A stretch of DNA of 40,000 nt from Salinarchaeum sp. Harcht-Bsk1 (GTDB lineage: Archaea; Halobacteriota; Halobacteria; Halobacteriales; Salinarchaeaceae), in contig NC_021313.1 of NCBI RefSeq assembly GCF_000403645.1, positions 1,281,014 through 1,321,013 on the forward strand, in the 5' to 3' direction. Below are positions 8,694-38,948 of the stretch, piece after piece. Under the pieces are notes generated by a model. It had not been told where the DNA came from. It was given only the letters and a program-made list of their open reading frames with translations, and did not search any database. How positions within the stretch are numbered: the stretch's first letter is position 1; every line of letters starts with the position of its first letter. The translations under genes and the position numbers were made by a program.

Positions 8694-8809
8694 CGAAGGT
8701 CGTGCAGCAGCATCGCGAGGACCTCGAAGCGCTCGCTCAGAGCGACCTCCACGTCGACTGGATCGCACGCACACTACTGGAACTCGACGAGGAGGGCGGT
8801 CGGGAATGA
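8690..8809 (+). CDS. small hypothetical protein (39 aa)
   Basis: Below the track size cut-off. Reads MTKVVQQHREDLEALAQSDLHVDWIARTLLELDEEGGRE. Its ATG overlaps the AbrB-like stop (ATGA, 8690) and its stop overlaps the next ATG (ATGA, 8806), so coupling at both ends is the only support. Confidence 0.3.
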   Translation: MTKVVQQHREDLEALAQSDLHVDWIARTLLELDEEGGRE

Positions 8810-16478: not shown

Positions 16479-16939
16479 CAGTATGTGGCACAGAGTTCGC
16501 CGGTCTCTCGAACGGTGACCGAGGCATTCGAGACGTTCTCGGGGAGTTCCTCTTCGAGTTCCCGTTCGAGCTCGAGGGACATCACCTCCGCCGTGGGTGG
16601 ATGATCCAGGAGTAGGAGGCTCTCCCCTTCGCCGGCTTCTTCGAACGCTTTCGCCAACGGATCGGATTTCTCGAGCAAGAACCGGTGGTCCCACTCGTCG
16701 ATGATGTCGGTGACGATCCCCTTGTCGACGACCCACCCTTCCATGGTGAGCGTTCCAGTCACCTCGATCGTGATCTCGTAGTTGTGCCCGTGCGGACGCG
16801 AGCACTTGCCATCGTGGTGGCGAATCCGGTGGCCGGTACTGATTCTGATCGGGGAATCGCCCCCGATTCGGAGAGTACGCTCCCCGGCTTCGGCCAGTTC
16901 GATATTACTTGAGGCCGCTTCGGATAATCCTCGGGGCAT
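16478..16939 (-). CDS. queD: 6-carboxy-5,6,7,8-tetrahydropterin synthase
   Basis: 153 aa. The PTPS-fold Zn/active-site motif CSRPHGHNYEITIEV, and WDHRFLL. Confidence 0.85.
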   Translation of the reverse strand: MPRGLSEAASSNIELAEAGERTLRIGGDSPIRISTGHRIRHHDGKCSRPHGHNYEITIEVTGTLTMEGWVVDKGIVTDIIDEWDHRFLLEKSDPLAKAFEEAGEGESLLLLDHPPTAEVMSLELERELEEELPENVSNASVTVRETGELCATY

Positions 16940-17254: not shown

Positions 17255-17779
17255 ATGAATTTGTCATCTATCCCTACCGAATCCGGCGTATACTGTATGT
17301 TTGATCTTGACGGCGCGCCAGCTTATGCCGGACAGACCAGTAACATCAGGAGTCGATTACGACAACACTTCATACGCCAGGACTCGAGCGTTTCCAGTTA
17401 CGGTCGTCTCGATCCATGGGACATTGCCTCCGTAAGTTGGTGGACAACTGAGCGGTGCGATCCAGCGGAACAAGAATTGCTGACTACGTTCCAACCCTAT
17501 CTGAACTTCTCTGCGGAGAGCGATACACCACCGTTGTCAACCGATATCAGTCTTGATTCACCTGATGGGACCTTTGCCCTCATGTCTGATCAAGAGCAGG
17601 AGTTCCGGAGGCAGCCGTATAACCGAGTCAAACAGAAAATGGAGCACATCAACCGGATGGTAGATAAGATTAAATACGCCGATCACAGCGACGACACCCG
17701 TCGGACGCTGTACGAGCACAAACGCATTTTGGAAGAGAATCTTCAGGAATTCCTCGGTGTCGATGAGATGCCCGGGTGA
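17255..17779 (+). CDS. GIY-YIG domain nuclease
   Basis: 174 aa. GVYCMFDLDGAPAYAGQTSNIRSRLRQH matches GIY-(x9-11)-YxG with the conserved downstream Arg-x3-H/E. Starts 6 bp after the RHH gene. Confidence 0.6.
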   Translation: MNLSSIPTESGVYCMFDLDGAPAYAGQTSNIRSRLRQHFIRQDSSVSSYGRLDPWDIASVSWWTTERCDPAEQELLTTFQPYLNFSAESDTPPLSTDISLDSPDGTFALMSDQEQEFRRQPYNRVKQKMEHINRMVDKIKYADHSDDTRRTLYEHKRILEENLQEFLGVDEMPG

Positions 17780-17787: not shown

Positions 17788-19320
17788 TTACGTAACTTTG
17801 CCGTCAAGCTCGAGAACCGGAATCAATTCTGGTTCCTCACTCCCGTACTGTATCTCCCCTTTCTGGAAATCAAAGCGGATTGGCTCGCCGAGATAGGAAG
17901 TACGCTCGATTCGGGTTAGCGCGTCTAAGTCGCCGAGTTTCCAGCAGACGAACCGATCAATGTTGGAGAGCGGAGTCTCCTCCTCGAAGAAGTCGCTAAG
18001 TTTCACCTGCACGGAAGCATGTTCGTATCCATTAGCTGTATCGAGGATCGCATTGACTTCGTCATTCATCTGGAAATCAGCAATCTGGAGCGACTCCGGA
18101 GCACCATTGGCACTGTATCGTTCTAAGAGAGCTATGACCTCGGCTGGATTTGACGGCGACAGCCCGTCCGCGCCCCGGGTACGTTCTAATCGTTCCTCTA
18201 GCGAGCTTTCCTGCGACTGGATGCTCCGTTTCTTGTCCTCGAGCTTTCGGCGCTCGATGTAATCGCGATACCAGGTCTCTTGGCACACTTTAGTCATGTA
18301 TCGGTCCAGCTCGTCCGTAATGGCTTGATAGACATCCCCGGACTTATTGCGGATTTTCTCCCGGTTCGCGGAAAGTTCGAGTTCCTGGCAGTTCGCGATG
18401 AAGAAGAAGTGGAAGAACTCGTTGTCGGCTCCAATGGCATCGTTGTACCGTTCGACCTTGATGTGGTCTTTTGCAAGCCAAATGCCGAATTGTGCAGAGT
18501 GCTTCCCGTAGGTCGGCAATTTGTTCCGTGCTTCTTTCCCTCCGACCATCCCGACAATCTCGATTGTCAATTCACGGCCGTCATCGAGCGAAACGGTCAG
18601 CTCCCTCGGCGGATAGTGCTTGCACATCGCTTCAGCGACGAACTCCCCGTCCGGATCAACGTTTTCAGCAGGGAATTTCAATCGGTTATCGGTCTCGATT
18701 GGCTGCCGGGTGTCGTCGATCGTGGGAGAGAGCTCGACATTTATCTCCATCGCGTGAAAATCGTTGCTGAAGTGCCATGCCGTTGAACCGCCGATTGTCT
18801 TCCACCTGATATAATGTTCAATCTTATTATATGTGAGCTGCTGTGGGTCGAACCCTTGTCCCGCCTGAAACCCGTGGACCTCGATCCGGGTGCGTGACGG
18901 CTCGTCTACGTCCCTTCTATCAACCGAGTACGTGGGGAGTTCGCGGTTGTTGAGTTTTGCCCACGGCTGATCCATCACCGATTCGATCTGCGTCCCGTCC
19001 TTGACTGTCTCGACCTGGATCTTGTCGCTCTTGTAGTAGATTTTGGTACCGTGGCCTTTGTACCCAATCGCATCGTCTTTGTTCGAGTTTCCAAGGTCGA
19101 AGAACGACGAGAGGTTGTCTTCGTCCATTCCGTGGCCGTCGTCCTCGATGATCAAAGTGTTCCGTCCTTCATCATCCTGCTCGATTTTGATATCGACCTG
19201 CGTTGCTTTCGCATCGTAGGAATTCGACAGTGCTTCTCTGATGACTTCCAACGGGTCCTCGAAGTCGCTTGCTATCTCGATAAACTCGTTGACCTCGTTG
19301 ACTTGTGGTGTCTTATGCAT
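17788..19320 (-). CDS. GHKL (Bergerat-fold, HATPase_c_3/MORC-like) ATPase
   Basis: 510 aa. N-box EALSNSYDA, G1 box IEDDGHGM, G2 box IGYKGHGTK. Its ATG overlaps the stop of the upstream dpdA-like gene by 8 nt. Confidence 0.8.
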   Translation of the reverse strand: MHKTPQVNEVNEFIEIASDFEDPLEVIREALSNSYDAKATQVDIKIEQDDEGRNTLIIEDDGHGMDEDNLSSFFDLGNSNKDDAIGYKGHGTKIYYKSDKIQVETVKDGTQIESVMDQPWAKLNNRELPTYSVDRRDVDEPSRTRIEVHGFQAGQGFDPQQLTYNKIEHYIRWKTIGGSTAWHFSNDFHAMEINVELSPTIDDTRQPIETDNRLKFPAENVDPDGEFVAEAMCKHYPPRELTVSLDDGRELTIEIVGMVGGKEARNKLPTYGKHSAQFGIWLAKDHIKVERYNDAIGADNEFFHFFFIANCQELELSANREKIRNKSGDVYQAITDELDRYMTKVCQETWYRDYIERRKLEDKKRSIQSQESSLEERLERTRGADGLSPSNPAEVIALLERYSANGAPESLQIADFQMNDEVNAILDTANGYEHASVQVKLSDFFEEETPLSNIDRFVCWKLGDLDALTRIERTSYLGEPIRFDFQKGEIQYGSEEPELIPVLELDGKVT

Positions 19321-20563
19321 AGGTCGTGTCCGTCTCCTCGAAGTACGGGTTCATTCGTTCGTTGATCAGCTGGTAGACGAACTTGCGGAAGCCTTTCTGA
19401 TCTTTAGCGGCTTCTTCAAGGTACCCAGCGACCTGATCCTGGTCACCCTCAGCGATCAACTGGCGGAATTGACGCAACTCCCGTTGCTGGATCGCCAGAT
19501 TGTGTGCGGCGACCGAACCAAGGATGTCCTTCTGATACAGGTCGTCCATCTCGTTCCGCATCCGTGCCCGGTGGAAATCGTCGTTACAGACCCGGCAATC
19601 ACAGGCGTCGAAATCGGCCTCGTCGATTGGGACGTAATCGAACAGGCTGACGGAGTACTTGCCGTTGATCGCCTGATGCAAGTAGGAGGCGGAGTCAAAG
19701 GAGTCGGCCCCGACCGCGACGAGCAACGGCATAGCTTTCCCTGAAATCCCGAACACGTGTAGAGGGAGGTCATCGTACCCCCGTTGCTGCATCACATGCT
19801 TGCAGTCGGAGACTGCCTCGACCAGAACCTCGACGTTGTCCTTCCGTGGGACCAGGCTGCCAAGCGCGATTCCGTCGAACGCCTCAGGAATCGGTTCCGA
19901 GAGTTCGGCCTCGACCAAGTCGAAAGACCGTTCGAGCATCGCATCGTAGTAGCCGTGCACTGTCAGATAGCAGGCTCCCTCGACTTCCTCGCGCCGTTCT
20001 GCGAACCTGGCGGCATTTGCTGCGGTCTGCTCCATCTTTTCCAACCGTTCCTCGAACTCATCGTCGGGGTGAATCGGGTGGTCCAGATTGACGACGATAT
20101 CCGGACCCAGGTCCAGCTGCATATCCAACGCTTTGTCCTGGTCGATTTCTTTCTCGAAGTCTTCACCTTCGAGTCCGCCGCCCTGCTCTAGGATCTTGTA
20201 ACCACCGGAGTCCGCGAATATCATGCCGTCGTAGTCGCTGAAGCACTCCCACTCGCGAATTTCGTTGCCAAGATACCATTCCAGCTTCTTCTCTCGGATC
20301 CCATAGTCGGTCAACGAGGCGATGGAGGTCATCACGCCGCGGAACAGGTCACTGTACTCTTTACCACCAGTGACCTCGTTGTCATGAGCCAGGAATTCCT
20401 TGACTGTGCGGTGTACCCCGCCACCGAAGAGAGCGCCCTCGTTGCCGCCGCCGTAGAAGTTGATGACCGGGAATAGGTGCGGGGTTTCCAATGTCCGGTC
20501 GTTGATCTGGAGCTGGCCACGTCGAGCCTCGCCTGCCTCAGCAACAATCTCGAATGACGCCAT
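19313..20563 (-). CDS. dpdA: DpdA-like guanine transglycosylase (TGT superfamily, no RNA-binding extension)
   Basis: About 416 aa from ATG 20563 (the track ORF begins at GTG 20575). TGT motifs FADSGGYK, VAVGADSFDSASYL and the Zn site CDCRVCNDDFH. The protein ends soon after the Zn site, leaving no room for C1/C2/PUA domains. Confidence 0.75.
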   Translation of the reverse strand: MASFEIVAEAGEARRGQLQINDRTLETPHLFPVINFYGGGNEGALFGGGVHRTVKEFLAHDNEVTGGKEYSDLFRGVMTSIASLTDYGIREKKLEWYLGNEIREWECFSDYDGMIFADSGGYKILEQGGGLEGEDFEKEIDQDKALDMQLDLGPDIVVNLDHPIHPDDEFEERLEKMEQTAANAARFAERREEVEGACYLTVHGYYDAMLERSFDLVEAELSEPIPEAFDGIALGSLVPRKDNVEVLVEAVSDCKHVMQQRGYDDLPLHVFGISGKAMPLLVAVGADSFDSASYLHQAINGKYSVSLFDYVPIDEADFDACDCRVCNDDFHRARMRNEMDDLYQKDILGSVAAHNLAIQQRELRQFRQLIAEGDQDQVAGYLEEAAKDQKGFRKFVYQLINERMNPYFEETDTTYA

Positions 20564-20567
20564 ACTG

Positions 20568-21029
20568 TCAGTCACCGTGTACCGGATCTGGTCGACCGCT
20601 AGACACCAAGTGCTTCAACCGCTTGCCCTTCATCCCAATACCACAGCCCTCGATATAGTGGACCGGAATATCAACAGCAGCCTCGATCCCGTCAACAGCC
20701 GGCAGATAATCCGCTCCCAGATTGACCCACACTTTGTCATACTCATTCCCAGCGACTTTCTCCGCAATTTCCCCGACCACCTCGTCGTTCAATTCGTTAG
20801 CACGGTCTGTGTCCATCTGACGATCATAATATCCGATCTTATCATCGGTTTCAACGACTCCATGCTCAGCAGATATAATAATCATGTCAAGTCCAGGTTG
20901 AAACTGGTCCGCGCGCAGCGCCTTCTTGATGATTCTAAAGAAGTATCCATCGTACAAATCGAGGGCAGGCACCGGTGTATCCACCGATTCCTTTGTCGCG
21001 GAACATGATTGGACTAATAGTGACGTCAT
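20568..21029 (-). CDS. small protein with N-terminal CSxxK motif (stand-alone ArcS-C1/DUF5591-like or DUF6884-like domain?)
   Basis: 153 aa. LLVQSCSATKESV...ALDLYDGYFF resembles the strand-CSxxK start of the C-terminal domain of the neighbouring 636-aa protein (LLILPCSQEKPY). The family assignment is from memory only. Confidence 0.45.
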   Translation of the reverse strand: MTSLLVQSCSATKESVDTPVPALDLYDGYFFRIIKKALRADQFQPGLDMIIISAEHGVVETDDKIGYYDRQMDTDRANELNDEVVGEIAEKVAGNEYDKVWVNLGADYLPAVDGIEAAVDIPVHYIEGCGIGMKGKRLKHLVSSGRPDPVHGD

Positions 21030-21105
21030 CTAACTGCTGATCACGTGAGGGGACCTTAGTCTTTATGGAGAACCACCGGAGGTCAGGCGGACAGCCTGTC
21101 ACTCT

Positions 21106-23016
21106 TTACAACGAGGTGGTAAATCGTTCCACAAGCTCGTCGATATTCTCGCCACGGAAATGCTCGGTCAGCTGAAGGGCTCGCGGGTTGGACGGGAATA
21201 TCTCACCTCGGCCATATCGGGTGAATGCCTGGTCGATAGCTCGGCGATACGCTTTGCTCGTCGTGTAGGCCAAGATGTGGTCAAACTGTTCACCGAATCG
21301 GTCCAGGTACTGGGCGAGCCGGTTCGCAACGAGTTCGACTTGATCATCGTCCGCAGTGGTGAGGACATACTCGTAGCTCATTACAGGGTCCGCCTCCTCG
21401 AACTCCTCTGGCACAGGACCGTACAACCCTGAGAGGGATATCTTGTGGAACTGGTCCCGATACTCTTCAATCGGGGAGAGCACTGCCTGATGTGTCCGCG
21501 AGTCGGAGTAGGGCTTCTCCTGGCTGCACGGCAGAATTAGGAGGACATCAGCCTCAGATGGTGGCTGGTAGCCATCCTGCTGGAGAATGTTGAAATCGTT
21601 AGGACCGTGCTCCAATGAGATGGTCCGTTTCTCCCGTGTCGTGTCTTCAACCCCCTCGAGGAAGCCGGAGAGTTTAGTTTGGAACGTTCCAGCGTCCGGT
21701 CCCGCAACGAGTTCCTCGTAGCCGATGTCGGCCAACTGTTCGCGGAGCTCCGGGTTGTGGAGCTGTGCCCGCTTCAGCCCTTTCTCGACGATGTTCTTCC
21801 CCTGGGCGAACTCCGCCACGAGTTCGAGCAGTTCGTCGTTATCGATGGCGTCCCGCACAGCCTGCATCTGGCGACTGTACAATTCGAAGTTGTGCTGGGC
21901 TATCTGTGCGTAGTATTCGCTCTTGAAACGCTTCCCGTGCTCCCCCTCGATACGTTTGTAGCTGACATCGGACTCTAGAAGGGCGTGCCGCATATCGGCG
22001 AAGTAGATGTTCTGGCATGCCTGACAATCGCAGTACTCCTCGTCCCAGTCGCTCAACTTGGTCCGCTGCCACGTCTCCGGGTGGATGAAGCTCTTGTTCC
22101 GGGCTGCTTTCAAGTAGTTCGAGGAGTCGAACGTGTCGACGCCGAGGAGGGAGAGTAGCGGACAGAGCCGGCCGCTGATGCCGAACACGTGGAGTGCGAT
22201 GTCATCGTACCGTTCCTCCGGTATCGCATCCCTCGCACCTTGGACGATGTCGACGAGGACGTCCGGTGAGTTGCTGAGCGGGACAAGTGATCCGAGCGCA
22301 AAGCCCTCAAACGCTTCATCCAGTTCCTCAGCCCGGTCCAGAAATCGGCTCACGTACCAATTGACGTCCTCGTAGCTGTGGCCGTGAATCGCCACGTAGA
22401 CGGATGGGGACTTGTCGACACCCCATTCCTCGAGCTTCTCATCGTCATTGAGCAGCTGTAGACATTCGACTGCGTTATCGATACTCCGCTTCATTCGCTC
22501 GGTGGCTTCCGCCTTGTTCAGGTTCTGAGGAATCGGGAAGTCCAAGGTGGCGACGATGTCAGCACCATAATCCAGCTGCAGCTTCAGAATGCTCTCCGGA
22601 TTCGTGTAGATGCCCCAGTCGTTCTCGCTCCCACCTTCTTCCGGCGGCTGGCCGAATGTCGTCGAGTTCATCAGCTTGAATCCGCCGGAATCGACAAACA
22701 ATGGCTGCGTGAACCCGGGTTCGGCATCGCTCTCCTCGAAGTGCTGCTTCAGCGGTTTCTCCCGCCACTCCACCAGGTTGTCCGGGGTGAGATTGTAGTC
22801 GAGAAACGTCATCGTCTGGAACATGAATCCCTGGACAGTGTCGCTCTGGAAGAGATAGCGCCGCGTATACCGCCAGATGCCACCTGATTCTGGGGTGGTT
22901 CCTCCGATAAGATTCGCAACTGGGAGAAGGGCAGGTGTCTGAATCTGGCCGGCAGGCGTGTCTATCTCGCCCCGCCGACCGTATCTGGCCTTTGCGAGCG
23001 TCCTGAATGGAGGCAT
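21106..23016 (-). CDS. TGT-catalytic-domain protein fused to an ArcS-type C1 domain (archaeosine-synthase-like), apparently PUA-less
   Basis: 636 aa from ATG 23016. N-terminal half: FVDSGGFK, LLGVDTFDSSNYL, Zn site CDCQACQ...RH. C-terminal half: LPCSQEKPYSDSRTH at 21490..21531, an exact match to the ArcS signature PC-x3-KPY-x2-S-x2-H. Only about 127 aa follow the motif. Confidence 0.75.
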   Translation of the reverse strand: MPPFRTLAKARYGRRGEIDTPAGQIQTPALLPVANLIGGTTPESGGIWRYTRRYLFQSDTVQGFMFQTMTFLDYNLTPDNLVEWREKPLKQHFEESDAEPGFTQPLFVDSGGFKLMNSTTFGQPPEEGGSENDWGIYTNPESILKLQLDYGADIVATLDFPIPQNLNKAEATERMKRSIDNAVECLQLLNDDEKLEEWGVDKSPSVYVAIHGHSYEDVNWYVSRFLDRAEELDEAFEGFALGSLVPLSNSPDVLVDIVQGARDAIPEERYDDIALHVFGISGRLCPLLSLLGVDTFDSSNYLKAARNKSFIHPETWQRTKLSDWDEEYCDCQACQNIYFADMRHALLESDVSYKRIEGEHGKRFKSEYYAQIAQHNFELYSRQMQAVRDAIDNDELLELVAEFAQGKNIVEKGLKRAQLHNPELREQLADIGYEELVAGPDAGTFQTKLSGFLEGVEDTTREKRTISLEHGPNDFNILQQDGYQPPSEADVLLILPCSQEKPYSDSRTHQAVLSPIEEYRDQFHKISLSGLYGPVPEEFEEADPVMSYEYVLTTADDDQVELVANRLAQYLDRFGEQFDHILAYTTSKAYRRAIDQAFTRYGRGEIFPSNPRALQLTEHFRGENIDELVERFTTSL

Positions 23017-23294
23017 CAAAGAACCTGTGTAGTAACTCTATGCGACACCTCAATTAACCTCTCGCTCCAGAAAGCGTAAAAATTCTATCAATACTGAGAT
23101 GCCGATGGAGCCGATATGTCAGTAAACGCTGCCACTCAAAGCGAACTGGAAAGGCGCACCAGCAACCGTGACGATGACCGACAACACTGGAGACAACACT
23201 GTTGGGTCTGTATCGGGCGTTACAAATAGCGCCACAGCGACTTTCCAGGGGTTCCGGAAGCAGATACAGAAGAAACTGGATGCACGGGAAGGTT

Positions 23295-23915
23295 TTATGG
23301 TGAAATGAAAGCAGTGCCGAGGGCTTGGATGCTGAACCCAAGTAGGATGAGGAATACGCCGCTTCGGCGAAACCGGGAGTCAAGTTTTTGGATGCGCTCT
23401 CGAATAAAGTACTGGACGGCTTCTAGCTCAAAATAGACATCGTTGTCGACGCCCTCTCCAGTCAGATGTAGCGCTTTTCGCAGATCATTCTCGTGAAACT
23501 CATATTTCTCCGGGCTGATGGTGTCGAAACTATCCCAAGCGATCTCCGTGGACACATTGTCTGACTCCTCATATTGCTCTCGAATAAGATGTAAGAGGTC
23601 GTCGAAGGTGGGTGACCGAGCTGGAGCGAGCAGGTGTTCTTCATCTAAATCGGGATCCGCAACGACCCACCCAGGAAATGGCTTGAGTATCTCGTCTTGG
23701 CTTTGCTTCAGCCGGCCACTCTCAAACCGTCGGTTCAACGCCGGCCAGTCAGGCACCACAAGAACAATCGCACCGACCACATCGATCAATAATCCTGTAA
23801 CGACGACTGCTACACTGCTCAAGGAGTAGTAGCATGCATAGAGGAGTGCTGTAGGGACGAGAACGAGTAGTGCGAGCGCTGCCACAAGCCGTGTTTGGGG
23901 AAATGTAACTGACAT
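23295..23915 (-). CDS. membrane protein (two N-terminal and one C-terminal predicted TM helices)
   Basis: Hydrophobic runs LVAALALLVLVPTALLYACYY, VAVVVTGLLIDVVGAIVLVV and GVFLILLGFSIQALGTAFI flank an acidic soluble middle. It is the last gene of the helicase-1 operon. Confidence 0.55.
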   Translation of the reverse strand: MSVTFPQTRLVAALALLVLVPTALLYACYYSLSSVAVVVTGLLIDVVGAIVLVVPDWPALNRRFESGRLKQSQDEILKPFPGWVVADPDLDEEHLLAPARSPTFDDLLHLIREQYEESDNVSTEIAWDSFDTISPEKYEFHENDLRKALHLTGEGVDNDVYFELEAVQYFIRERIQKLDSRFRRSGVFLILLGFSIQALGTAFISP

Positions 23916-24004
23916 CAAGTATGTTCAACTGACATGCACTAAATGTATGAACGTTGGTGACCGGGAGGGTTACTCGCCGTTTGTAACATTTTGACGGAGA
24001 GAGG

Positions 24005-24697
24005 TCATCCAAGCCGAATTTCAAGGTAGTTAGCGAGGTTTGACCCGGTTAGTGCCTCACGTTCCTCCTCGGAGAGGTCGTTGAAGCAAGGCGGTTCATC
24101 CGACAGCAGTTGGTCCATCACGTCTTCAAGGGTGGTGCCGCTGTAGCTGCCGAGCAAATCTTTCTGGACCTGTTGCAGGGCGTTAGACATGGTGGCTGCA
24201 ACGTCGCGGGCTTCCTGTTGTTTCGCCTCGAATGACTCCTCGGCTTCGTCAGTATAGACCTGGGCTTTCCAGTTCCAGTCGTCGAGCAGCGACTCGAGTG
24301 CATTGAGTTTACCCATGTCAGCGGCCTCGACGTGCTCGTTCAATTTCCGCATCGCTCTGACACGGTCTCTTTCCTCAGTACGTTCTTCGTGGATCTTGTT
24401 CTCAATCTGGTGGGCTTCCTGGCTGACCTGGTCCTCGACATTGTCGATAATATCGTCCAAGGCATCGAAATCACGTTCGTCGGCGTACCCACCCGCCTCT
24501 TGGACTTTCTCCTTGGCTTCATCAACGACCTTGACCTCCAGATCGAGGAAGTCTCGCGCGATGATCGCTTGTAGCATAGTTTCCTCCATCTCGGTAGCTA
24601 CCTTCTCTAATCGATCCTCCAAGTCCCGCCGGAGGTACTGTTGGTGGACCGTCTCGAGTTCCTGCTCGAATAGAGACTGATCACTGGTCTCCGACAT
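24005..24697 (-). CDS. acidic coiled-coil protein, unknown function
   Basis: 230 aa with heptad-like E/K/Q/L-rich sequence throughout. Its ATG overlaps the stop of the 997-aa gene by 17 nt. Confidence 0.55.
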   Translation of the reverse strand: MSETSDQSLFEQELETVHQQYLRRDLEDRLEKVATEMEETMLQAIIARDFLDLEVKVVDEAKEKVQEAGGYADERDFDALDDIIDNVEDQVSQEAHQIENKIHEERTEERDRVRAMRKLNEHVEAADMGKLNALESLLDDWNWKAQVYTDEAEESFEAKQQEARDVAATMSNALQQVQKDLLGSYSGTTLEDVMDQLLSDEPPCFNDLSEEEREALTGSNLANYLEIRLG

Positions 24698-27674
24698 AGT
24701 ACTGACTCACCTCCTGAAAATACGGGGCAAAGGAAGACGACGATTCCTCTGTCTCGAAATCGATTTCGTTGAACGACTCGATAACCTCGTGCTCGATAAG
24801 TTTGTACTCGACCAGCATTTTGTGGATCGCGTCCTGTGTCGACGTGCCTAAGGTGTCGAGACATAGCCGGCTGGCAGCGACCACCTCGTCCACCTCGGCC
24901 TGGCTATACGAATCAAACTGTAGTAGCGACTCGTACAACGAGCGGTCCACCTCGTAGTTATCCAAGACGTCGACATTGTCGTGGATCCGCTCCATATCGA
25001 TACCTCCCAGTTCATTTTGAGCCGTCCGGGCCGTCGTGTAATCCTGTATCTGGTCTTCCTGCTGATCCAGTGACTTCTGCATCCGATACGCCTTGGTCAC
25101 CATCTCGACCAGTTTCGTGTCGGAATCAAACCGGACACGCGAGCTCAATCCCTCCGGGTCAGCACGGAGTCGGCTCAACACGTCCTGTGGCTCATTATTG
25201 GAGAACCACCGACGGAGACGGGGGAGATCCAATGTGGTGTCATTAATGGCATGACGCTCTGCGACAAGTGCATCGAACGCCTCCGCATACTCCATGAACT
25301 CCTGAATGTGATCCAGTGCTTCAGGAGCCAGTTCCTCGGTCAGTGCTGTCTCTAATGTCGTGTCCAAGGCGTAGTCTTCACCGCTGGCGAACCGCTCGTT
25401 CAAGGTTGGTGCCGTCACCTCTTGCCACGGATCGTCCAGCACGACGATCCAGGCATATGCTGCTAGGACGTAGTCGTCGAATCCGTACGGTGGATCGTAC
25501 TTGTAGTAGACCGAGGTGTCCTCGATATACTGCTCCCTGACTTTGGCCCGCCACTGCCGGGCATACTCCGTCAACTGGCCACCGACCAACGTGAGGACCC
25601 GTTGCTCGTCAGCGCTGGCATCCGCCTCGTCTATTCGGATCCCGTATTTCAGTAGTTCGCGGATATCAGACCGCTGAAAATCCTGTGGACCAAGCACGAT
25701 TTGGCCCGGAGCAGGCGATGATTCAGCAGAGGGGTATACGAACGGGTCATCCGACCGGCTGAGGTTGTACCTGAGATCGCAGTCCGTCCACAGCGAGTAA
25801 TCCTGCGTCAACGTATTGATGAGGTCGGCAAATGCAGTTCGCAGGTAAGTGTCCGTCTCGACGTATGATTCGTCCTGCGGGTTGGCGTACCAGTTGTCCA
25901 CGTAGCCGCTCTGCTCGTTGATGAGGCGCTCGATACGACTCAACCCTCCGCCATCACCGCCTCCTTCAGTTTCCTCATCGTCTCCACCTGTCTCCTCCTC
26001 GTCTTCGCCGGTTTCACCCGGCTCCGTCTCTTCATCATTTGGTGGAATATACTCGACACCGGGAATCTTGACGTGATCATCCAGCAATTCGATGTTTGCC
26101 GGAAGCTCGTCCGCTGCCGGGTTCTCGGGGAGCAGCCCGAATGCTTCGAGGAAGGCCCGGTCAACGGCGATGTATTCGTCGTATCGGTCGGTATCGCCGT
26201 ACCATTTGGCGACGTGGGCGAAGACTTCGGCTTCCTGGTAGACGTCGTCGTGGGCTGCGACCCGGTTTGTCACATGGTTCAGCGGGCTTGCCGTGGCGGG
26301 ACACGTGGCTGTCCCGTTGAAGTATTCGAGCACGGTCTCGAAGACGACGATGATCAGTTCACGAGGGGACTGCTCGCTCTCATCAAGGCCGGTGTAGATC
26401 CGTTCGATAAACTGCTGGTTGAAGGGGAACAGGTCGCGGAAGCTGTCGTCGCACAGTCCACACCTTGCGCACAGGGAGTCCGGCTCCGGGTCCAGCAAGG
26501 TGAAGTCGCCGGCGTCACGGTCGTAGCGGACGCTGCCATCGTGGTGCTTGATGTAGCCGAGGTACGGACGGATGAAGTCAACAGCCGTCTCGTCGTCAAG
26601 AAAGAGGACCTGGTTGGAGTTCTGTTTGTTCGTCCGGTAGAACCGGAACCGGTCCTCAGCAGTCCGTTTGTGGAGGATGGCCGTTGAATCACGGGTGCCA
26701 GCGACGATGAAATCCCAGTTATCACCGGGGTTGTCGCGTTCCATGAAGTTGCGGAGCTGCCGCGCCTGCATCCCTGTGATCGAGAAGTCCTCGAAGACAG
26801 CGACCGGCCGTTTGTCACCGTATTCCTCTTTGAATTTCTCACCGACTTCTTCCAGCAGATCCGTCAACGGTGGGGTATCGTACTGGTCGAGTAGTGCCTG
26901 CCAGAACCCGCTGCTCAGTTTCTCCGCTGGATGCCCCTCGAAGGCGTCGGCGCCCTCGTCGAAGACCTGCAGGTAGCTATTCTGTTCGTATTCTTGCTCG
27001 GTCACCAAGTTCGGTTCATCGCCGTACTGCCGAGGCTCGACTAATCGGTCGCGGATCCGTTCCGCCACGAATTCGACGATAGCGTCCTCTTGGTCCGGTG
27101 TCGTCGAGGTAGCATAGCCGTCCCATCCAATCTCCAGCAACGCAGTGTAGACGGCCTGGCTTGCGACCATCCGCGGCCGCTGTTTGATATCATCTTCAAG
27201 CCGCTTGAACCGGGACGAGGTCTCCAACGTCTCGTCGAAGTGGTCCTGGTAGAAGTCCGGGATGTCCTCGGTCAGCATCGACATTAAGTCCGTGTCTTTG
27301 TTGACGCGGAGGATCGGACGGTCAGCGTCGTTCTCTAATCGGTGGTTGAGCGCAACGCAGAGTTCCGATTTCCCGGTTCCGACCTCGCCCTCGATGACGA
27401 CGGCGAAGTTCTTGTTGCGGCTTCCGGAGAAATCCTGGTAGACATCGTCCTCCGTGACGACTCGTTCCTCATCGGTTTCCAGCGATGGGCCTTCGACACC
27501 GCCTTCGATCTGGAAGAGTTCGATCGGGCGATGGGTAAACCAGAACAGGTCCGGATTCTCGGCGCGGACGGCAGCAACCCGGCTGAACAGGCTACGCAGG
27601 TCGGACTCGTCCTTTTCGTGGAAGTGTGGGCAAAACAGATCGTCGGGAGAGGAGGATGCAGTTTCGCTACTCAT
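24681..27674 (-). CDS. large P-loop NTPase, unknown family
   Basis: 997 aa. Walker A VVIEGEVGTGKSELC near residue 100 and candidate Walker B RPVAVFEDFS near residue 290. An acidic low-complexity linker (EETEPGETGEDEEETGGDDEETEGGGDGGG) is followed by a long alpha-rich C-terminal half. ATGA overlap with the upstream gene. Confidence 0.7.
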   Translation of the reverse strand: MSSETASSSPDDLFCPHFHEKDESDLRSLFSRVAAVRAENPDLFWFTHRPIELFQIEGGVEGPSLETDEERVVTEDDVYQDFSGSRNKNFAVVIEGEVGTGKSELCVALNHRLENDADRPILRVNKDTDLMSMLTEDIPDFYQDHFDETLETSSRFKRLEDDIKQRPRMVASQAVYTALLEIGWDGYATSTTPDQEDAIVEFVAERIRDRLVEPRQYGDEPNLVTEQEYEQNSYLQVFDEGADAFEGHPAEKLSSGFWQALLDQYDTPPLTDLLEEVGEKFKEEYGDKRPVAVFEDFSITGMQARQLRNFMERDNPGDNWDFIVAGTRDSTAILHKRTAEDRFRFYRTNKQNSNQVLFLDDETAVDFIRPYLGYIKHHDGSVRYDRDAGDFTLLDPEPDSLCARCGLCDDSFRDLFPFNQQFIERIYTGLDESEQSPRELIIVVFETVLEYFNGTATCPATASPLNHVTNRVAAHDDVYQEAEVFAHVAKWYGDTDRYDEYIAVDRAFLEAFGLLPENPAADELPANIELLDDHVKIPGVEYIPPNDEETEPGETGEDEEETGGDDEETEGGGDGGGLSRIERLINEQSGYVDNWYANPQDESYVETDTYLRTAFADLINTLTQDYSLWTDCDLRYNLSRSDDPFVYPSAESSPAPGQIVLGPQDFQRSDIRELLKYGIRIDEADASADEQRVLTLVGGQLTEYARQWRAKVREQYIEDTSVYYKYDPPYGFDDYVLAAYAWIVVLDDPWQEVTAPTLNERFASGEDYALDTTLETALTEELAPEALDHIQEFMEYAEAFDALVAERHAINDTTLDLPRLRRWFSNNEPQDVLSRLRADPEGLSSRVRFDSDTKLVEMVTKAYRMQKSLDQQEDQIQDYTTARTAQNELGGIDMERIHDNVDVLDNYEVDRSLYESLLQFDSYSQAEVDEVVAASRLCLDTLGTSTQDAIHKMLVEYKLIEHEVIESFNEIDFETEESSSSFAPYFQEVSQYYVGDQ

Positions 27675-28519
27675 GACGTGATAACGATGGAGTTCGCCGA
27701 TTGTTCGCGGCGGTCGTGCGTCGGCATCCGGTCAAAGGCGACAGCACCTTGATCACCGATCTCTGCCAGGCGGATCCGTTCCTCGTTCATCAGTTGGTAG
27801 AGAGAACGGCTGAGGATGGCAGGCACACCGCCAGTGTCTTCTGGAAGGTAGAGCAGGTTGTTCGACAGCCAATCCAGATACGTCGGTACCTCGATGACGG
27901 GGTTGCCGTCGACCGTTCGGCCAGCGGCGTTATGTGCCCGTTTGATCGAGTGGTAGATGAGCGACGGGTCGGGGTAGACGGTGAACTCGTGCGTTTCATA
28001 CTGGTGGAGCAGGCCAAGGTAAGTGGCGAGGCGGCCCCAGTTTTCCATCTTGTTCGGGTTCAGGTCGAGCCGGTCACCACGGTACGTCGGGTAGTACTCC
28101 AAGGTGTCGCGTTCCCAGCGGTCCATCTGCTTCCTGACCGCTTCGTCTTTGTCGTTAATCCGCTGGTAGTCTTCCTTGATGAGGTACGCGTAGTTCAAGT
28201 GGAGGACGGCTTGCTTCCCCCAATCAGGCGGTGTAAGAGATGACGCAAGATTTTCTAACGCGGTCAACTGGAAGTCCAGTATCTCATCGCCCGTCGACCA
28301 CGTGTAGTCACGGACGGTGTACTCTTCGTCTTTGGAATCAAGCAGCCCTAACCGCAGTAACCCCTTTGCTCCTTCATCAACGGCATCAGCACTCAGCCCG
28401 GTATCGTCGACAATTTCATCCTCAGTCGTATTGCCGCGGTTGACTGATTCGTAGACCGGTTTGAGTGACCTGGGATTCTGGATGGTGTTGAGAAGATATC
28501 CCTGGTCAGGATCTGTCAT
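27671..28519 (-). CDS. hypothetical protein (possible N-terminal winged helix)
   Basis: About 282 aa from ATG 28519, which gives a TAATG overlap with the upstream stop (the track ORF starts at GTG 28540). TTEDEIVDDTGLSADAVDEGAKGLLRLGLL looks HTH-like. No family recognised. Confidence 0.5.
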   Translation of the reverse strand: MTDPDQGYLLNTIQNPRSLKPVYESVNRGNTTEDEIVDDTGLSADAVDEGAKGLLRLGLLDSKDEEYTVRDYTWSTGDEILDFQLTALENLASSLTPPDWGKQAVLHLNYAYLIKEDYQRINDKDEAVRKQMDRWERDTLEYYPTYRGDRLDLNPNKMENWGRLATYLGLLHQYETHEFTVYPDPSLIYHSIKRAHNAAGRTVDGNPVIEVPTYLDWLSNNLLYLPEDTGGVPAILSRSLYQLMNEERIRLAEIGDQGAVAFDRMPTHDRREQSANSIVITS

Positions 28520-29415
28520 TATGGACTCCGTTGTAGCCACGCTTTGTAAGTTTGCCCTAGAGGAGTCGAATCGAGGTTACGTGCTTCGCGCCGCGCATCG
28601 CTCATCGACGCATCTTGGGCGACAGCGGCTGGATCGAATGCACGCGTGTTGTCCGCAACCGTAGAATTCAGAGAACGTACCACTCTCATCGCTGTCGAGG
28701 AGTCCCATTCGATACGGCGGCGCAGCCACGAGGCCAGGTTCTGCAACGCGTCATCTTTCTTGGGGCTGGTGCCAGGCCCGTCGTGGCTTTGGAAAGCAGC
28801 TGCAATCGCGTCGTACAGTGGGAGATACGGTGCATCGTTCAACAGCGAGAAGAGTTCGGTCGTCTGTGTCACGGTTTCACCGGCTACACGTTCATACAGG
28901 ATGGCGTTGTCTTGGAGGAAGACGTTCTGTGTGTCGGTAAGCGGGAAATCGAAGCCCTGGTCGTTGTACCACTGGTTCAAGGCATCATACACATCGTCAT
29001 AGGGGCGTTGTGCGATGGCGAAGGGTTCGTGGTAGAGCGGGCGCAGACCTTGCTGGGTTTGGAACTGTTTCTCATCCGCAACGACGACCATCGTCCCCAT
29101 CTCCTGCCATCGGTTGATCAGGCCGCCGATCGAATGCTGCGTTTCATCCTCGTAGTACTGCGTCGTCAAGGCCGCCAACATTTGCTCCTCGTACTCGATG
29201 TTCTGGAGCAAACTGTACTCATAGGAGAACAAGCCCCGTCCATCGCCGCTCTGAAGCTGCCGCCACCTCCAGGGATATGTGAATTCTTCTATACCAAGCC
29301 GATTGAGCGCTGGCAGACAGCGGAGAAGCCCAAACTGTGACCGTTGCTCAGTCGTGTCGTGGATGAGAAACACGCCCTGCTTAGAGAGGAACGATTGGAG
29401 CGTCTCCCACTTCAT
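28519..29415 (-). CDS. hypothetical protein
   Basis: 298-aa ORF with ATG start, 37 bp downstream of helicase 1 and coupled to the next gene. No motif recognised. Confidence 0.5.
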   Translation of the reverse strand: MKWETLQSFLSKQGVFLIHDTTEQRSQFGLLRCLPALNRLGIEEFTYPWRWRQLQSGDGRGLFSYEYSLLQNIEYEEQMLAALTTQYYEDETQHSIGGLINRWQEMGTMVVVADEKQFQTQQGLRPLYHEPFAIAQRPYDDVYDALNQWYNDQGFDFPLTDTQNVFLQDNAILYERVAGETVTQTTELFSLLNDAPYLPLYDAIAAAFQSHDGPGTSPKKDDALQNLASWLRRRIEWDSSTAMRVVRSLNSTVADNTRAFDPAAVAQDASMSDARREARNLDSTPLGQTYKAWLQRSP

Positions 29416-29452: not shown

Positions 29453-32400
29453 TCATGGCGTTTGTCCTACTGCCTCCGCGAGCAGCGTCCTGTTCAGCAG
29501 GTCGTTGTCCAGATACGTAGCTGGTGTCCGCTCGATCAAGAGACAGTTCTCACAATAGCCGCTACATTCGTCACAATCAATCACGTTTCGGACCTCGTCG
29601 ACGATAGCGTCCAAGTGTCGGTCGACCTGTGTCGCAATCCCGTTGCCACCCTGCCGATTATCGACGATGTAGACGCGAATCTCGTCGCCCGTCGCCGTCA
29701 CCTTCACGCGGAAATCGTCTTGATCACTCTGGGTTTCGACGGCAACCGCTTTCGTTAACGCTTGTTCTAAGCTGATGAACAGTTGGGGCCACACTGCCTC
29801 GTCTTCCTGTTCCAACGCCTCATCCGGAAGTCGATCAGCCACCGCTGCCTGGTCGAACGTGAGACAGATCCCCTGTGTTACGTACTGCTTCCCGACAGGC
29901 GCGTACCGGGCATCGTCGCTGTCAGGAATCCGTGCTTCAGACCGTTTGATCTCTTTCCCGGATCCCATCGTGTGCCGCCGCTCGAATACCGGGATAAAGT
30001 CAATCACATCGTAGCCGCCGACCGCTACGTCACAGGAGAGGCCGAATACCGTGGTTTCTTCGCCTGCGGTTCTTTCGCCACGACTCGTGACGTGGGTCGT
30101 CATGATGGGCGAGGTACTGTATAAATCTTCGAACTGGTGGGCTTTCCGACAGTTGACTGCCTGAACGCCGTGGACTGAAATCGCATCTAACGGGTTGCCG
30201 CAGTGTGGACATTGCTCTGCTGCTGTCCGGTAGCTTTCGAACGGCCGGGTACAGTCCTCGTTGGTGCAAATCGCCACCGTCTGTAACGGTTCCTTCGTGC
30301 CTTCGACGTCCGACACCAAGTAGGTTGAGCCGTACAGGGTCATCACTGCCCCTCGCTCATTTTCCTCACCAGGGTAGAAGTCGTAGAGGCGGCCGTCACC
30401 TTGGAACGAGATGCTTTCACTGCTGCCTTCGAACTGGACAGGGAACTGTTGGCCGAACTCGCGATAGTTCGCCAAGTAGCCCAGTCGGTTGAGCCAGGAA
30501 TCCAATCGGTCATTCCCGTTTCGCACGTCGTCGAGATCGGTGCTGTCACTGAAGCTGCGGAACTGGCCACAGGTTTGCTGTGTCCGTTGCCGGAAACTCA
30601 CCGGGCCGTCACTGTTGAAAACCGCGTCGAAGACCTCCAAACCACGTTGCCCGAACACGGCCCCGATATGGTCCCGTAACCGGTCCGTCACGTCGTCGCG
30701 GACAAAGGTGCGTAGCTCGTCAAGGTTGGCTTCCACACGGTCGGCGAACTCGGCCACAGAGTCGACCGACTGATTAATCTGGTAGGTCTCCTCGAACGTG
30801 TCACTGGGATGCGGGTTGCGGGCGAGATAGGCGACGACTTCGGTCACTACGTGGCCGGCCAGGACTTCGTCGAAGTCGAACGGGTCCGGAACACGGACAG
30901 GGTCGAAGCTGCCGAAGAAGCGATCCAGGTCGTCGTAGTAGTGTGCGTCGACAGGATGGGTGCCGCGGACCGTGGTGGCTACCAAGGATTCGCTGCCGCG
31001 CGTCCGCCCGGTGCGGCCGCTGCGTTGCACGTAGTTAGTCAAAGTCGGCGGTATCCCGACCTGTGCCACTGAATCCAAGGTGCCGATGTCCACACCGAGT
31101 TCCATCGTCGGAGTCGCGCTGACGATGTTGATGTCCGGATCTGATTTCCGGAACCCCTCCTCAATGGCGCTCCGAAGTGTCGGTGGGACGTCCCCCTTGT
31201 GGATTCCTACCGTGATGAAGTCCAACTCCATCATCTCGACCGTGTCGCGCGGTACCGGTGGCCCTTCACTCGGGATGAGAGGCGCAAGGATATCGTGGCC
31301 CCAGTGATCGACCGGGTACTCCCAGTCTGTCTCGACGTCTGCCCAGCCGAGGAGGGTCATTGAGCCGTCGTCCTCGACACGGAACCGTTGGTGGACGTCG
31401 ACCGTATTTCCGCAGGTCGGGCAATGGTCAAGGCCGTCATCGTGACGGGGAACAGGTGACGCCGTGTAACAGTCGTTGCAGAACGTTACCTGGGGAACCA
31501 GTTGGAGGTCCGTCTTACTCGCGTAGTCGTGGACGGTGAAGATACCGCCGCCGACATCACTATAGCCGTCACGTGCTTCCAGACCGTCAATTTGGTCTTC
31601 GATGTACTCGAAGACATCGTCCTCAGTTGCTTCATCCTTCCCCGCGTTGAGTATCGTGTCCCGTACGCCATCCCACGTTTTGAGTTCAAACACGTCGCCG
31701 TCTAGCAACCCCTGCAACACGTCGTCGACAACCTCGTCGATTTCCTCTTCGGTGAATCGTGTCTCAGACTCGAGCTTGTTGACCAACCGCTCCCGGGTGT
31801 ATCCCTGGAACTTGATTCCGTGTTTCTGGAACTGGGGCGGGAACCGGCTGACGAAGAGATTGAACACCTCGTGGCCGATTGCCGCGGTCTTCGGATCGGG
31901 ACAGGTGTGGACCCATGCAGGGGTGACAAGCGCTGCTTCACGGAGATGCTGGCACTGGGAGAGCCGTGCGTTCGGCTCGATTTCGTTCCACAGCTCAACG
32001 AGAATATCGTTCGCATCCGTTTCCCGGTCCGGTGTGTTCTGTCGCAGTGGCTGCCAGTACTTCTCCCGCAGTGTATCCAATACCGGGTAAAACAGTGACC
32101 GGGCCTCAGCTCGGCCACCTTCCTCGATCAACTGCTTCACGTACAGCGTCTCAGCGGTTAACCCGTACTCCGTCCCGATGATTTCGTTGCTGACCGATTC
32201 AGCTGTCGACCGTGAATCAGAGAAGACCAACGTCTTCTCGGACGGCATCGACCGGCACAGCGACGTCAACATGAACGAAAGCAGGGTCGGCGTCGGCACC
32301 GTGATATCGGTCAACCGGAGCCGCAACGTCGTACAGCCAGGACACGGACCGTCCGTCCCGCCGCCGTAGACCGGTTGAAACACCTCGTCGTCCTCGTCTT

Positions 32401-38533: not shown

Positions 38534-38948
38534 CGAACTCGCCTACTTCATCGGGTACACCCTGATCCACGCCGACAGGGTCGTTCTCGTCTCGCCGTGG
38601 CTGAGCGACGTCGAACTCCGCTTCCCGGTGAACGACCAGACTTCCAGCCGCGAACTCCTGCTCTCCAAAGCCGTCGCCGAACTCACCGACACTGACATCA
38701 CTTTCCTCATCAACGGCAACGAAGACCACAACGACTACATCAAATCCCGTGTCGAACGGAACGCCGAAGTCGTTGACGTCCCCGACCTCCACGCCAAAGC
38801 CGTCATCACTGACGACTGGGTCTACGCCGGCTCCGCCAACATCACCCGCCGCGGCCTCCTCGTTAACCGCGAGCTCTGCAAAATTGTCACCAACACCCAC
38901 CCAGACGCCAATACTTACGTCGAAGAAGAGCTCAGCGTGGACCTATGA
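38505..38948 (+). CDS. PLD-superfamily (single HKD, Nuc-like) nuclease
   Basis: 147 aa from ATG 38505, overlapping the helicase-2 3' end by 29 nt. HKD motif DLHAKAVITDDWVYAGSANITRRG (HxK...D...GSxN). Confidence 0.8.
   Translation: MTRAFTLPSNELAYFIGYTLIHADRVVLVSPWLSDVELRFPVNDQTSSRELLLSKAVAELTDTDITFLINGNEDHNDYIKSRVERNAEVVDVPDLHAKAVITDDWVYAGSANITRRGLLVNRELCKIVTNTHPDANTYVEEELSVDL

Follow-up and report, generated by a model that had tools for sequence, protein, structure and literature searches.

A 40,000-nucleotide stretch of DNA from the haloarchaeon Salinarchaeum sp. Harcht-Bsk1 (contig NC_021313.1, positions 1,281,014 to 1,321,013 of the forward strand), analyzed as a whole and hereafter called the window, contains a string of four genes built around two paralogs of tRNA-guanine transglycosylase (TGT). 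Protein A is a complete TGT fused to DUF5591, the C1 core of archaeosine synthase (ArcS). Protein B is a TGT-only protein whose gene is preceded by that of a small DUF6884 protein (protein C) and followed by that of a GHKL ATPase. In our judgment, the evidence leans modestly toward two DNA-writing modules, the fusion A and the C-B-GHKL triplet, fed by the 7-cyano-7-deazaguanine (preQ0) pathway encoded in the same BRIGADE-type island. This reading is built on gene content, domain architectures, active-site conservation, fold relations and neighborhood patterns, all of which were observed in the window and in related loci and are described below in window coordinates.

Architecture of protein A and its family

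The four genes and the parts of protein A are as follows (pLDDT, predicted local distance difference test).

21106..23019, minus strand: protein A, TGT-DUF5591 fusion, 637 aa from TTG at 23019 or 636 aa from ATG at 23016
21715..23019, minus strand: TGT (alpha/beta)8 barrel and helical extension of A, residues 1-435, with key barrel residues D110, D160, H212-G-H214, G243SLVP247, D295, D298, C330/C332/C335 and H376
21595..21699, minus strand: disordered linker of A, residues 441-475, pLDDT <50
21109..21582, minus strand: DUF5591 / ArcS C1 core of A, residues 480-637
21490..21531, minus strand: ArcS signature PCSQEKPYSDSRTH of A, P497-H510, followed by 127 residues
20568..21029, minus strand: protein C, DUF6884, 153 aa, Pfam DUF6884 1e-11
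19313..20575, minus strand: protein B, TGT-only, 420 aa, Pfam TGT 1.9e-29
17788..19320, minus strand: GHKL (HATPase_c_3) ATPase, 510 aa, Pfam 1.8e-15

A gap of 76 nt separates A from C, and overlaps of 8 nt each join C to B and B to the GHKL ATPase gene. The two TGT paralogs, matching Pfam TGT at 1.5e-30 (A) and 1.9e-29 (B), and their base-exchange and Zn motifs were found where an earlier note on this DNA had placed them, the motifs well beyond chance. That note had placed the pair in one operon; the TGTs stand, but the operon consists of four genes and not two, the DUF6884 gene between the TGTs and the GHKL ATPase gene after B having been overlooked. The N-box, DxGxG and GxxGxG motifs of the GHKL ATPase, read from its translation, are all intact.

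In addition to the TGT domain, Pfam reported DUF5591 in A at 8.8e-19 (residues 482-603), or at 6e-20 with the isolated C-domain, and the C-terminus was found to match PDB entry 2q07 (AF0587, the C-part of a split ArcS) at 3e-8. The AlphaFold model of A (pLDDT 78.8) comprises the barrel (1-435), the disordered linker (441-475), whose length varies across the A-family alignment, and one small alpha/beta domain (480-637) with a beta-alpha-beta-beta-alpha-beta-alpha-beta-alpha topology in this AF2 model. PUA was not detected in A by Pfam, and the model, which also served as a check on the absence of PUA, ends in the single alpha/beta domain, with neither C2 nor PUA after it. Thus, the domain assignments, the model and the 127 residues left after the motif bear out the earlier description of A as a hybrid of complete TGT and ArcS C1 core that has no PUA. 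The match to PC-x3-KPY-x2-S-x2-H is also present, as P497CSQEKPYSDSRTH510. Within the A family, P497, C498, K502, P503, Y504 and S507 are invariant, and position 510 (21490-21492) is H or Q; Gln occupies it in the 93%-identical ortholog of Halorussus halobius and in several other members.

How common is this architecture? The C-domain was searched against 1.84 billion representative proteins, and the 150 best clusters at 50% identity were classified. A-like fusions (DSGG, usually CxCxxC, and terminal DUF5591) account for 55 of them, short stand-alone DUF5591 forms or fragments for 49, and canonical ArcS-like proteins, with the domain central and a tail of ~180-220 aa, for 34; another two combine TGT and DUF5591 with a ~200-aa tail, and the remaining ten fit no class. 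The representatives P0251 (880 aa) and P0311 (847 aa), in which an extra tail of ~190-200 aa follows TGT-DUF5591, show this third architecture, which stands between the A-like fusions and canonical ArcS. Homolog clusters with the architecture of A number more than 300, and the fusions occur in both archaea and bacteria (one source being Candidatus Poribacteria), where they are annotated merely as 'tRNA-guanine transglycosylase'. The view of A as an unusual hybrid was therefore right as to an architecture distinct from ArcS, but A belongs to a large family and is not a one-off.

The nearest kin of the A C-domain are other fusions and stand-alone forms, with canonical ArcS more distant. On the canonical ArcS model NF040592, A scored 116 bits against a cutoff of 440, the best stretch aligning A 482-598 with model positions 287-401. 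Comparison of the A family with ArcS-like proteins by hhalign gave an E-value of 2e-34, and revealed that ArcS is without the first half of the barrel while keeping GVDxFD, CxCxxC and the His. The earlier statement that the ArcS N-domain has lost catalytic residues is thus broadly correct: D[ST]GG was found in none of the 34 ArcS-like representatives. A resembles ArcS2-type proteins in having DUF5591 without PUA and in being co-encoded with a TGT, but in A the two are fused and a second TGT adjoins. In a tblastn search of 50,697 phage records, A retrieved bacterial-type tgt genes only, and its DUF5591 domain retrieved only marginal matches in STSV and PhiF1; a pattern scan of IMG/VR gave no relatives. 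A viral origin of the cassette is therefore unsupported by these scans.

Active sites, gene neighborhoods and protein C

Both TGT paralogs carry the residues for base exchange. The motifs are D110SGGFK, G293VDTFDSSNY (with D298), C330-x-C332-xx-C335 and H376 in A, and D122SGGYK, G289ADSFDSASY (with D294), C325/C327/C330 and H358 in B. Alignment to P. horikoshii ArcTGT and Z. mobilis TGT placed the general acid/base Asp at D110 of A and D122 of B, the base-binding Asp at D160 and D165, and the nucleophile at D298 and D294, respectively, with the Zn ligands in place; the loss of catalytic Asp or Zn ligands that would have spoken against the earlier claim was seen in neither alignment. Among 20 A-family sequences, down to 50% identity, no variation was seen at D110 and the following S-G-G, D160, D295, D298 and H376, and the Zn cysteines are at least 90% conserved; in the B family (119 sequences), conservation of the catalytic and Zn residues is 98% or higher. 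Even in 17 non-haloarchaeal fusions with mutual identities of 32-45%, both active sites are invariant, including C-x3-KPY and SG..GPVP. To judge from these sequences, A and B both look competent for base exchange. One A-family cluster, P0099 (631 aa), has lost all three Zn cysteines (WLIDEAFST for C-x-C-xx-C) and has kept DSGG, D298 and the DUF5591 motifs.

The substrate pocket is of a common type in the two proteins. The pocket Gln of TGT (Q203 in Z. mobilis, Q169 in P. horikoshii) is His in both A and B, and both have a G-S-L-V-P segment where ArcTGT has G-G-V-V-P, a part of the ArcTGT pocket that has been tied to specificity for preQ0 over preQ1. The A barrel and B (28% identity, E 2e-47) are nearer each other than either is to ArcTGT, which is nonetheless matched by B at 5e-21 (1iq8) and is the top Foldseek match of the A model (1iq8, 3.5e-19). 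The TgtA equivalog TIGR00432 has a cutoff of 350 bits, of which A reached 99 and B 120, and PUA is present in neither. On the NCBIfam DpdA model NF041059, B scored 27.3 bits against a cutoff of 200 and A gave no match, both proteins scoring higher on TgtA; the DpdA4 Pfam family DUF6610 (PF20314) matched neither, PF01702 (TGT) being the only family reported for them in that scan. Since the scores fall under the TgtA, ArcS and DpdA cutoffs, A and B are neither housekeeping TgtA/ArcS, an identity that the earlier note had named as a refuter, nor bacterial-type DpdA. The label DpdA-like given earlier to B is thus not borne out by hidden Markov model (HMM) scores, by which B is closer to ArcTGT, although A and B share with DpdA a layout in which the TGT fold has both catalytic Asp residues and the Zn site and C-terminal domains for tRNA binding are absent. 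In an unbootstrapped neighbor-joining tree, all fusions form one clade with haloarchaeal B as its sister, and bacterial DpdA-like and Methanofastidiosum TGT-only proteins fall outside. Two B-family matches, P0165 and P0232, bear the labels Candidatus Nanohalobium (a DPANN symbiont of haloarchaea) and Streptomyces sanglieri (a 5-kb contig); transfer to symbionts, or contamination or mis-binning, could account for them.

Gene neighborhoods separate the two modules. Wherever C, B and the GHKL ATPase were all found, namely at 28 haloarchaeal genome loci and ~40 hypersaline metagenome loci, they are contiguous and collinear in the order C->B->GHKL, and the GHKL ATPase gene directly follows B at every locus having DNA downstream of B. 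Across ~80 haloarchaeal loci, the triplet forms a fixed unit. The gene for A lies upstream or downstream of the triplet, divergent from it or convergent with it, and in Natrinema caseinilyticum the two are ~17 kb apart in one island. In some loci (e.g., L112, L115 and L037), the triplet is directly beside preQ0 synthesis genes. The large Natrinema caseinilyticum island (L073) also has a Vut_1/YhhQ-family transporter gene (18247-18906) and several HNH, AIPR and Mrr nuclease genes, with no preQ0 synthesis genes near the triplet.

Several non-haloarchaeal cassettes have no TGT other than the fusion, and they lack a DUF6884 gene. One of them (L142, 81-5699) consists of a DpdJ-like helicase, a PLD nuclease, the fusion and a Vut_1/YhhQ-type transporter (3e-50); another (L128, 5245-12272) has the DpdJ-like helicase, the fusion and the Vut_1/YhhQ-type transporter, with a small open reading frame (ORF) without a Pfam match at the position of the PLD gene. 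Neither cassette was found to contain another TGT or preQ0 synthesis genes, and both are candidates for a minimal Dpd-like system relying on salvage. The base transporter adjoining the sole TGT argues that the fusion itself does base exchange. A third locus (L092) groups the fusion with helicase and PLD. In two further loci, the fusion is directly followed by a GHKL (HATPase_c_3) ATPase: in L121 (7032-14163), with a 4-nt overlap and a 1191-aa PglZ-like protein next in line, and in L146 (6185-9062). Fusions as well as the TGT-only paralog can thus have a GHKL partner.

Other arrangements were also observed. In Dictyobacter, a lone fusion gene lies beside conjugation genes and a TIR/MoxR defense cluster. 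Two loci, L091 (9914-18011) and L093 (3503-11475), have two oppositely oriented fusions in an island that also encodes QueC, a BrxC/DpdH-like protein of 998 aa and a Vut_1 transporter, and are thus 'two-writer' islands made of two fusions rather than of a fusion and a triplet. In Halorussus halobius and Haloarcula (L001, 1-15257; L003, 7880-21902), A-C-B-GHKL and QueD/E/C are found beside PglZ-like and BrxC-like genes, in L003 also with HerA/DUF87, so that the backbone is BREX-related, unlike the helicase set of the window. It seems, then, that different restriction backbones have in common a writer cassette that behaves as a mobile module. A plasmid-borne copy in Halorubrum xinjiangense (plasmid p1; L034, 7906-15257), whose A is 93-94% identical to that of the window, indicates, at the level of sequence, recent horizontal transfer between genera; other genera also have cassettes almost identical to that of the window. 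An assignment of one writer to each helicase arm was considered and not adopted, because the pairings conflict between loci: in N. caseinilyticum, A is near an MZB-type helicase and the triplet near a DpdJ-like helicase and PLD, whereas in non-haloarchaeal cassettes it is the fusion that pairs with the DpdJ-like helicase and PLD.

Protein C appears to be a free counterpart of the domain that is fused in A. It scored 45.6 bits on DUF6884 (cutoff 30), a family described by Pfam curators as a distant relative of YaaA/PF03883 with CxxxK and LSAxxG motifs, and the corresponding C9-x3-K13 and S53-A-x-x-G57 of C are invariant. In the AlphaFold model of C (pLDDT 87.6), the secondary structures follow one another as they do in the A C-domain. 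The sole significant PDB fold match of C was 2q07/AF0587 (E 6e-5, probability 1.0), the split-ArcS chain to which the A C-domain is also matched in sequence. Against viral models, C matched phage DUF6884 proteins and also the DUF5591/ArcS2 protein of phage nt-1, the latter with probability 0.92. Many phages have DUF6884 proteins structurally like C, among them Burkholderia KS14, Caulobacter Kronos, Mycobacterium Mendokysei and Halobacterium ChaoS9 (BFVD A0A481V9V6). Alignment by hhalign pairs C9/K13/S53/G57/Y68 of C with C498/K502/S530/G534/Y549 of A. DpdC is itself a DUF328/PF03883 protein; C scored 16.7 bits on PF03883 (cutoff 29.6) and weakly matched the PADLOC DpdC models (3e-5 and 1.6e-4 over ~90 residues). 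We therefore read the operon as a pair of TGT paralogs accompanied by a pair of Cys/Lys 'nitrile-enzyme' domains that are likewise paralogs, the first fused to a TGT and the second free-standing.

Proposed pathway and competing explanations

In the two-module reading, the QueD, QueE, FolE and QueC proteins of the island would make preQ0. The complete TGT barrel of A would then swap guanine in DNA for preQ0, and the DUF5591 domain, on its flexible linker of ~35 residues, would attack the nitrile of the inserted 2'-deoxy-preQ0 (dPreQ0), presumably via the conserved Cys/Lys of the PC-x3-K motif, to give what is most likely an amidine, 2'-deoxyarchaeosine (dG+). The translationally coupled C-B-GHKL proteins would be the functional analogue of DpdC/DpdA/DpdB: B would insert preQ0, assisted by the GHKL ATPase in the place of DpdB, and C, a stand-alone homolog of the same Cys/Lys fold, would convert the nitrile to a product that may be the 7-amido-7-deazaguanine deoxynucleoside (dADG), as for DpdC. 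Finally, the helicases, the PLD nuclease and the BrxC/DpdH-like ATPase would restrict DNA without the mark(s). Inferred in this scheme are the choice of DNA over tRNA as the substrate, the chemical nature of the products, the assistance given by the GHKL ATPase and the way in which restriction works. Biochemical precedents exist for the separate steps. In Salmonella, DpdA requires the ATPase DpdB, and DpdC acts independently on preQ0-DNA; T. kodakarensis ArcS takes preQ0 nucleoside and nucleotide as minimal substrates, according to the title of PMC11298593. The earlier note had also called on RaSEA for dG+ formation, which is not obviously needed: nt-1 ArcS2 with DpdA2 gave dG+ in E. coli, a host that has no RaSEA.

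Several points weigh against this reading. The assignment of DNA as the substrate of A and B would follow from context only, namely from linkage to genes for preQ0 synthesis and transport and for restriction. According to a title cited in PMC11298593, ArcTGT can act on tRNA without its PUA domain, so that the absence of PUA does not exclude tRNA. The product of an ArcS2-type enzyme is unpredictable from sequence, given that nt-1 DpdA2 with ArcS2 yielded dG+ in E. coli plasmid DNA in traces only (PMC10516641) and that STSV-2, which has DpdA and ArcS2, contains dCDG, the 7-carboxy-7-deazaguanine deoxynucleoside, and not dG+. The non-conservation of H510 suggests that the signature His may not be catalytic, or that the chemistry may be unlike that of ArcS. 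In sequence, C resembles the A C-domain only weakly (hhalign P ~0.004, probability 4-6%), with no Pfam cross-match between DUF5591 and DUF6884 at E up to 10, and the homology of the two is therefore argued mainly from fold and motif collinearity. The apparent link of C to DpdC is likewise weak in sequence, PF03883 falling under its cutoff. The helper role of the GHKL ATPase is proposed by analogy, there being no homology to the ParB-like DpdB. Finally, the reading does not account for the need of one island for two writers; two marks, two target motifs, or a writer and an effector are possible reasons for the pairing.

A more far-reaching form of the two-module reading can be put forward tentatively, and we consider it doubtful as a whole. 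According to it, the independent writers of haloarchaeal BRIGADE islands place 7-deazaguanine marks of two chemical kinds in the chromosome: the fusion would make dG+ or some other amidine adduct, and the triplet dADG or some other nitrile product. The two helicase/nuclease arms would read these marks as a dual self-identity code. The fusion would then provide the first archaeosine-type base in cellular genomic DNA, and ArcS C1, DUF6884 and DpdC would be one Cys/Lys nitrile-activating superfamily.

An alternative, favored in the earlier note, is that B is the sole transglycosylase and that the A barrel only binds or flips the dPreQ0 inserted by B and presents it to DUF5591. This division of labor would suit two proteins co-encoded in one gene string in the window, and canonical ArcS offers a model for it, because its TGT-derived N-domain keeps GVDxFD and the Zn site and yet is no transglycosylase. 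However, canonical ArcS lost the half of the barrel in which A keeps DSGG, D160 and the pocket residues, invariant even at 32-45% identity. Fusions are also the sole TGT in cassettes carrying a preQ0-type transporter, and A and B are unlinked in several genomes, A moving independently of B. Thus, insertion by B with mere elaboration by A is not the best reading, and we regard it as unlikely.

Could A and B instead be the two halves of one enzyme? A heterodimeric transglycosylase like eukaryotic QTRT1/QTRT2, its product being processed by the DUF5591 domain or by C, accords with the dimeric state in which TGTs work (PMC5699537), with the co-occurrence of A and B in the same islands, and with their standing as closest paralogs and as sister clades in the neighbor-joining tree. 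Such an arrangement is nevertheless improbable: A and B each keep all catalytic residues, B is operonically locked to C and the GHKL ATPase and not to A, and fusions were found without any B-like partner. QTRT2, by comparison, has lost its catalytic residues.

No better placed is the proposal that one module is an effector, sensor or eraser, which might for example excise bases from invading DNA or remove 7-deazaguanines of phages, with the GHKL protein as a MORC-like effector. It would explain the otherwise puzzling presence of two writers, and it draws on the frequency of GHKL/HATPase_c_3 proteins in restriction and defense (PADLOC REase_II and TmtA and NCBIfam BbrUII-family matches were obtained) and on the proposal that DUF6884/YaaA-family proteins bind DNA lesions. 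The C-B-GHKL order, however, mirrors the functions of DpdC/A/B, the triplet adjoins preQ0 synthesis genes in some loci, and the preQ0-type, ArcTGT-like pocket with G-S-L-V-P is conserved in B, all of which make this proposal hard to sustain. The idea that A and B act on tRNA, as extra archaeosine-pathway paralogs or to protect or alter host tRNA during infection, has in its favor that the best HMM and structure matches of both are ArcTGT and ArcS, but is very improbable in view of scores far under the TgtA/ArcS equivalog cutoffs, the absence of C1-C2-PUA domains, a patchy distribution on plasmids and islands, and an invariable linkage to helicase, nuclease and BrxC-like defense genes.

The surrounding island and related systems

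The region from ~14.4 to 39 kb of the window has a G+C content of ~0.55, compared with ~0.69 to its left. Besides the four-gene string, the following features were assigned in it, the first four by Pfam/NCBIfam.

14410-15096, minus strand: QueC
15093-15701, minus strand: FolE
15702 to ~16484 (ORF open to 16805), minus strand: QueE
16478-16939, minus strand: QueD, PTPS 4.8e-21
17255..17779, plus strand: GIY-YIG nuclease-domain protein, which recurs near the cassette in other loci
23295..29415, minus strand: accessory/restriction-side block, within which lie 207-aa membrane-like, 230-aa, 289-aa and 298-aa proteins
24681-27674, minus strand: BrxC/DpdH-like ATPase, 997 aa, PADLOC DpdH 1.2e-6
29453..34183, minus strand: YprA-type helicase, 1576 aa (DEAD, Helicase_C, MZB/DUF1998), ARMADA/Druantia-like, best PADLOC match DruE
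34370..38533, plus strand: DpdJ-like helicase, 1387 aa, PADLOC DpdJ 2.3e-52
38433..38948, plus strand: small PLD-family nuclease ORF, Pfam PLDc_2 1.6e-8

QueD, QueE, FolE and QueC together make up the full preQ0 pathway, and the synteny of the 23295..29415 block is kept in many other loci. The neighboring genes, assigned by Pfam and PADLOC, agree with the earlier placement of the TGTs in a DNA-modification/restriction island rather than a housekeeping setting. A RaSEA-like gene is absent from the island, as had been noted, the only radical-SAM protein there being QueE. An N-terminal extension of ~130 aa on QueE was considered as a RaSEA-like novelty and rejected as an ORF-calling artefact, since the ORF is open for ~320 nt upstream and overlaps QueD. 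Pfam and PADLOC scans detected no ParB-like DpdB in the island.

Directly to the left of the island, at 5876-14246 and with host-like G+C, lie genes that look like an integrated element. Its set includes an HTH protein and the following genes, and ArgRS is also found to the left of the island.

5876-7177: tyrosine integrase
9333-12026: primase-polymerase/D5-type helicase
12609-14246: large terminase subunit

No capsid genes or tRNA were found in the window. The element could be a provirus remnant or a satellite-like element that carries or abuts the island.

A BRIGADE-type defense island, a Dpd/ARMADA hybrid, is the best explanation of the gene set. The BRIGADE preprint (Bell et al., bioRxiv 10.1101/2025.09.15.676423) describes, in its searchable text, a hybrid reported only from halophilic archaea, with two YprA-family helicases (one ARMADA-like and one DpdJ-like), a PLD nuclease, a DpdH/BrxC-like ATPase and a 7-deazaguanine cluster. 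The window fits its Type I: ARMADA-like and Dpd-branch YprA helicases, a small PLD nuclease, the 7-deazaguanine cluster, the DpdH/BrxC-like ATPase and a haloarchaeal host are all present, the helicase clades being taken from PADLOC best hits and not from the tree of the preprint's authors. The preprint is helicase-centered; its searchable text and supplements do not mention TGT, DpdA, DpdC, ArcS or DUF5591, and the two-writer anatomy does not appear in them.

Among modification systems, the closest parallel to A is DpdA2 with ArcS2 of Vibrio phage nt-1 (Hutinet et al. 2019 and 2023; PMC6884629, PMC10516641), likewise a DNA transglycosylase with an ArcS C1 core without PUA and with C-x3-KPY in common. 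In A, however, both activities are fused via a flexible linker, the setting is a cellular defense island and not a phage, and the barrel is ArcTGT-like and not DpdA2. The similarity of A to viral ArcS2 is marginal (STSV, 35%, E ~1e-3). Canonical ArcS, which transfers lysine to preQ0 and acts with RaSEA on tRNA, shares the DUF5591 core with PC-x3-KPY-x2-S, but has lost the DSGG half of the barrel and has C2 and PUA, whereas A has a complete barrel and neither C2 nor PUA, in an island without RaSEA.

The triplet resembles DpdA/DpdB/DpdC of Salmonella Montevideo (PMC10164549), in which a TGT and an ATPase partner insert preQ0 and a separate small enzyme converts the nitrile; the Dpd system also has linked DpdJ-like helicase and PLD-type restriction genes, as in the island. 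In contrast to Dpd, B is not bacterial DpdA by HMM, the ATPase is of the GHKL type and not a ParB-like DpdB, C is a 153-aa DUF6884 protein whereas DpdC is a ~300-aa DUF328 protein, and there is an extra writer, A. BREX-related capture (BRC) systems with TGT (NAR 2026, PMC12839542) have a gene set resembled by the Halorussus halobius/Haloarcula cassette beside PglZ-like, HerA/DUF87 and BrxC-like genes. No DpdB or DpdC homologs were detected in the BRC study, in which modification may stop at dPreQ0 (PMC12839542), whereas the present cassette has two nitrile-modifying candidates and a GHKL ATPase.

The proposal is thus less unprecedented than first supposed: action of an ArcS core on DNA has already been published in the case of ArcS2, and the island class was named BRIGADE in a 2025 preprint. 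In the literature searched, DUF5591 was found only in the Hutinet paper, of which there are two versions. A widespread, apparently self-sufficient writer family of TGT-DUF5591 fusions, the invariant DUF6884-TGT-GHKL triplet, the coexistence of both modules, and the fold link between the ArcS core and DUF6884 (weaker to DpdC) were not found there.

To our knowledge, phages are the only source for which archaeosine in DNA is on record, and the marks demonstrated for cellular Dpd systems are limited to dPreQ0 and dADG. Should the two-module reading be true, archaeal chromosomes and plasmids would bear archaeosine-type bases that label them as self. TGT-DUF5591 fusions make up no fewer than 55 of the 150 nearest 50%-identity clusters and may each be a tool for DNA hypermodification in a single protein. 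The cassettes of helicase, PLD, fusion and YhhQ-type transporter would amount to a Dpd-like system of restriction and modification in minimal form. The link in fold and motifs from the ArcS core to DUF6884 and, weakly, to DpdC suggests a common catalytic mechanism of nitrile conversion. Overall, the model is testable in cultured haloarchaea and by established E. coli two-plasmid assays.

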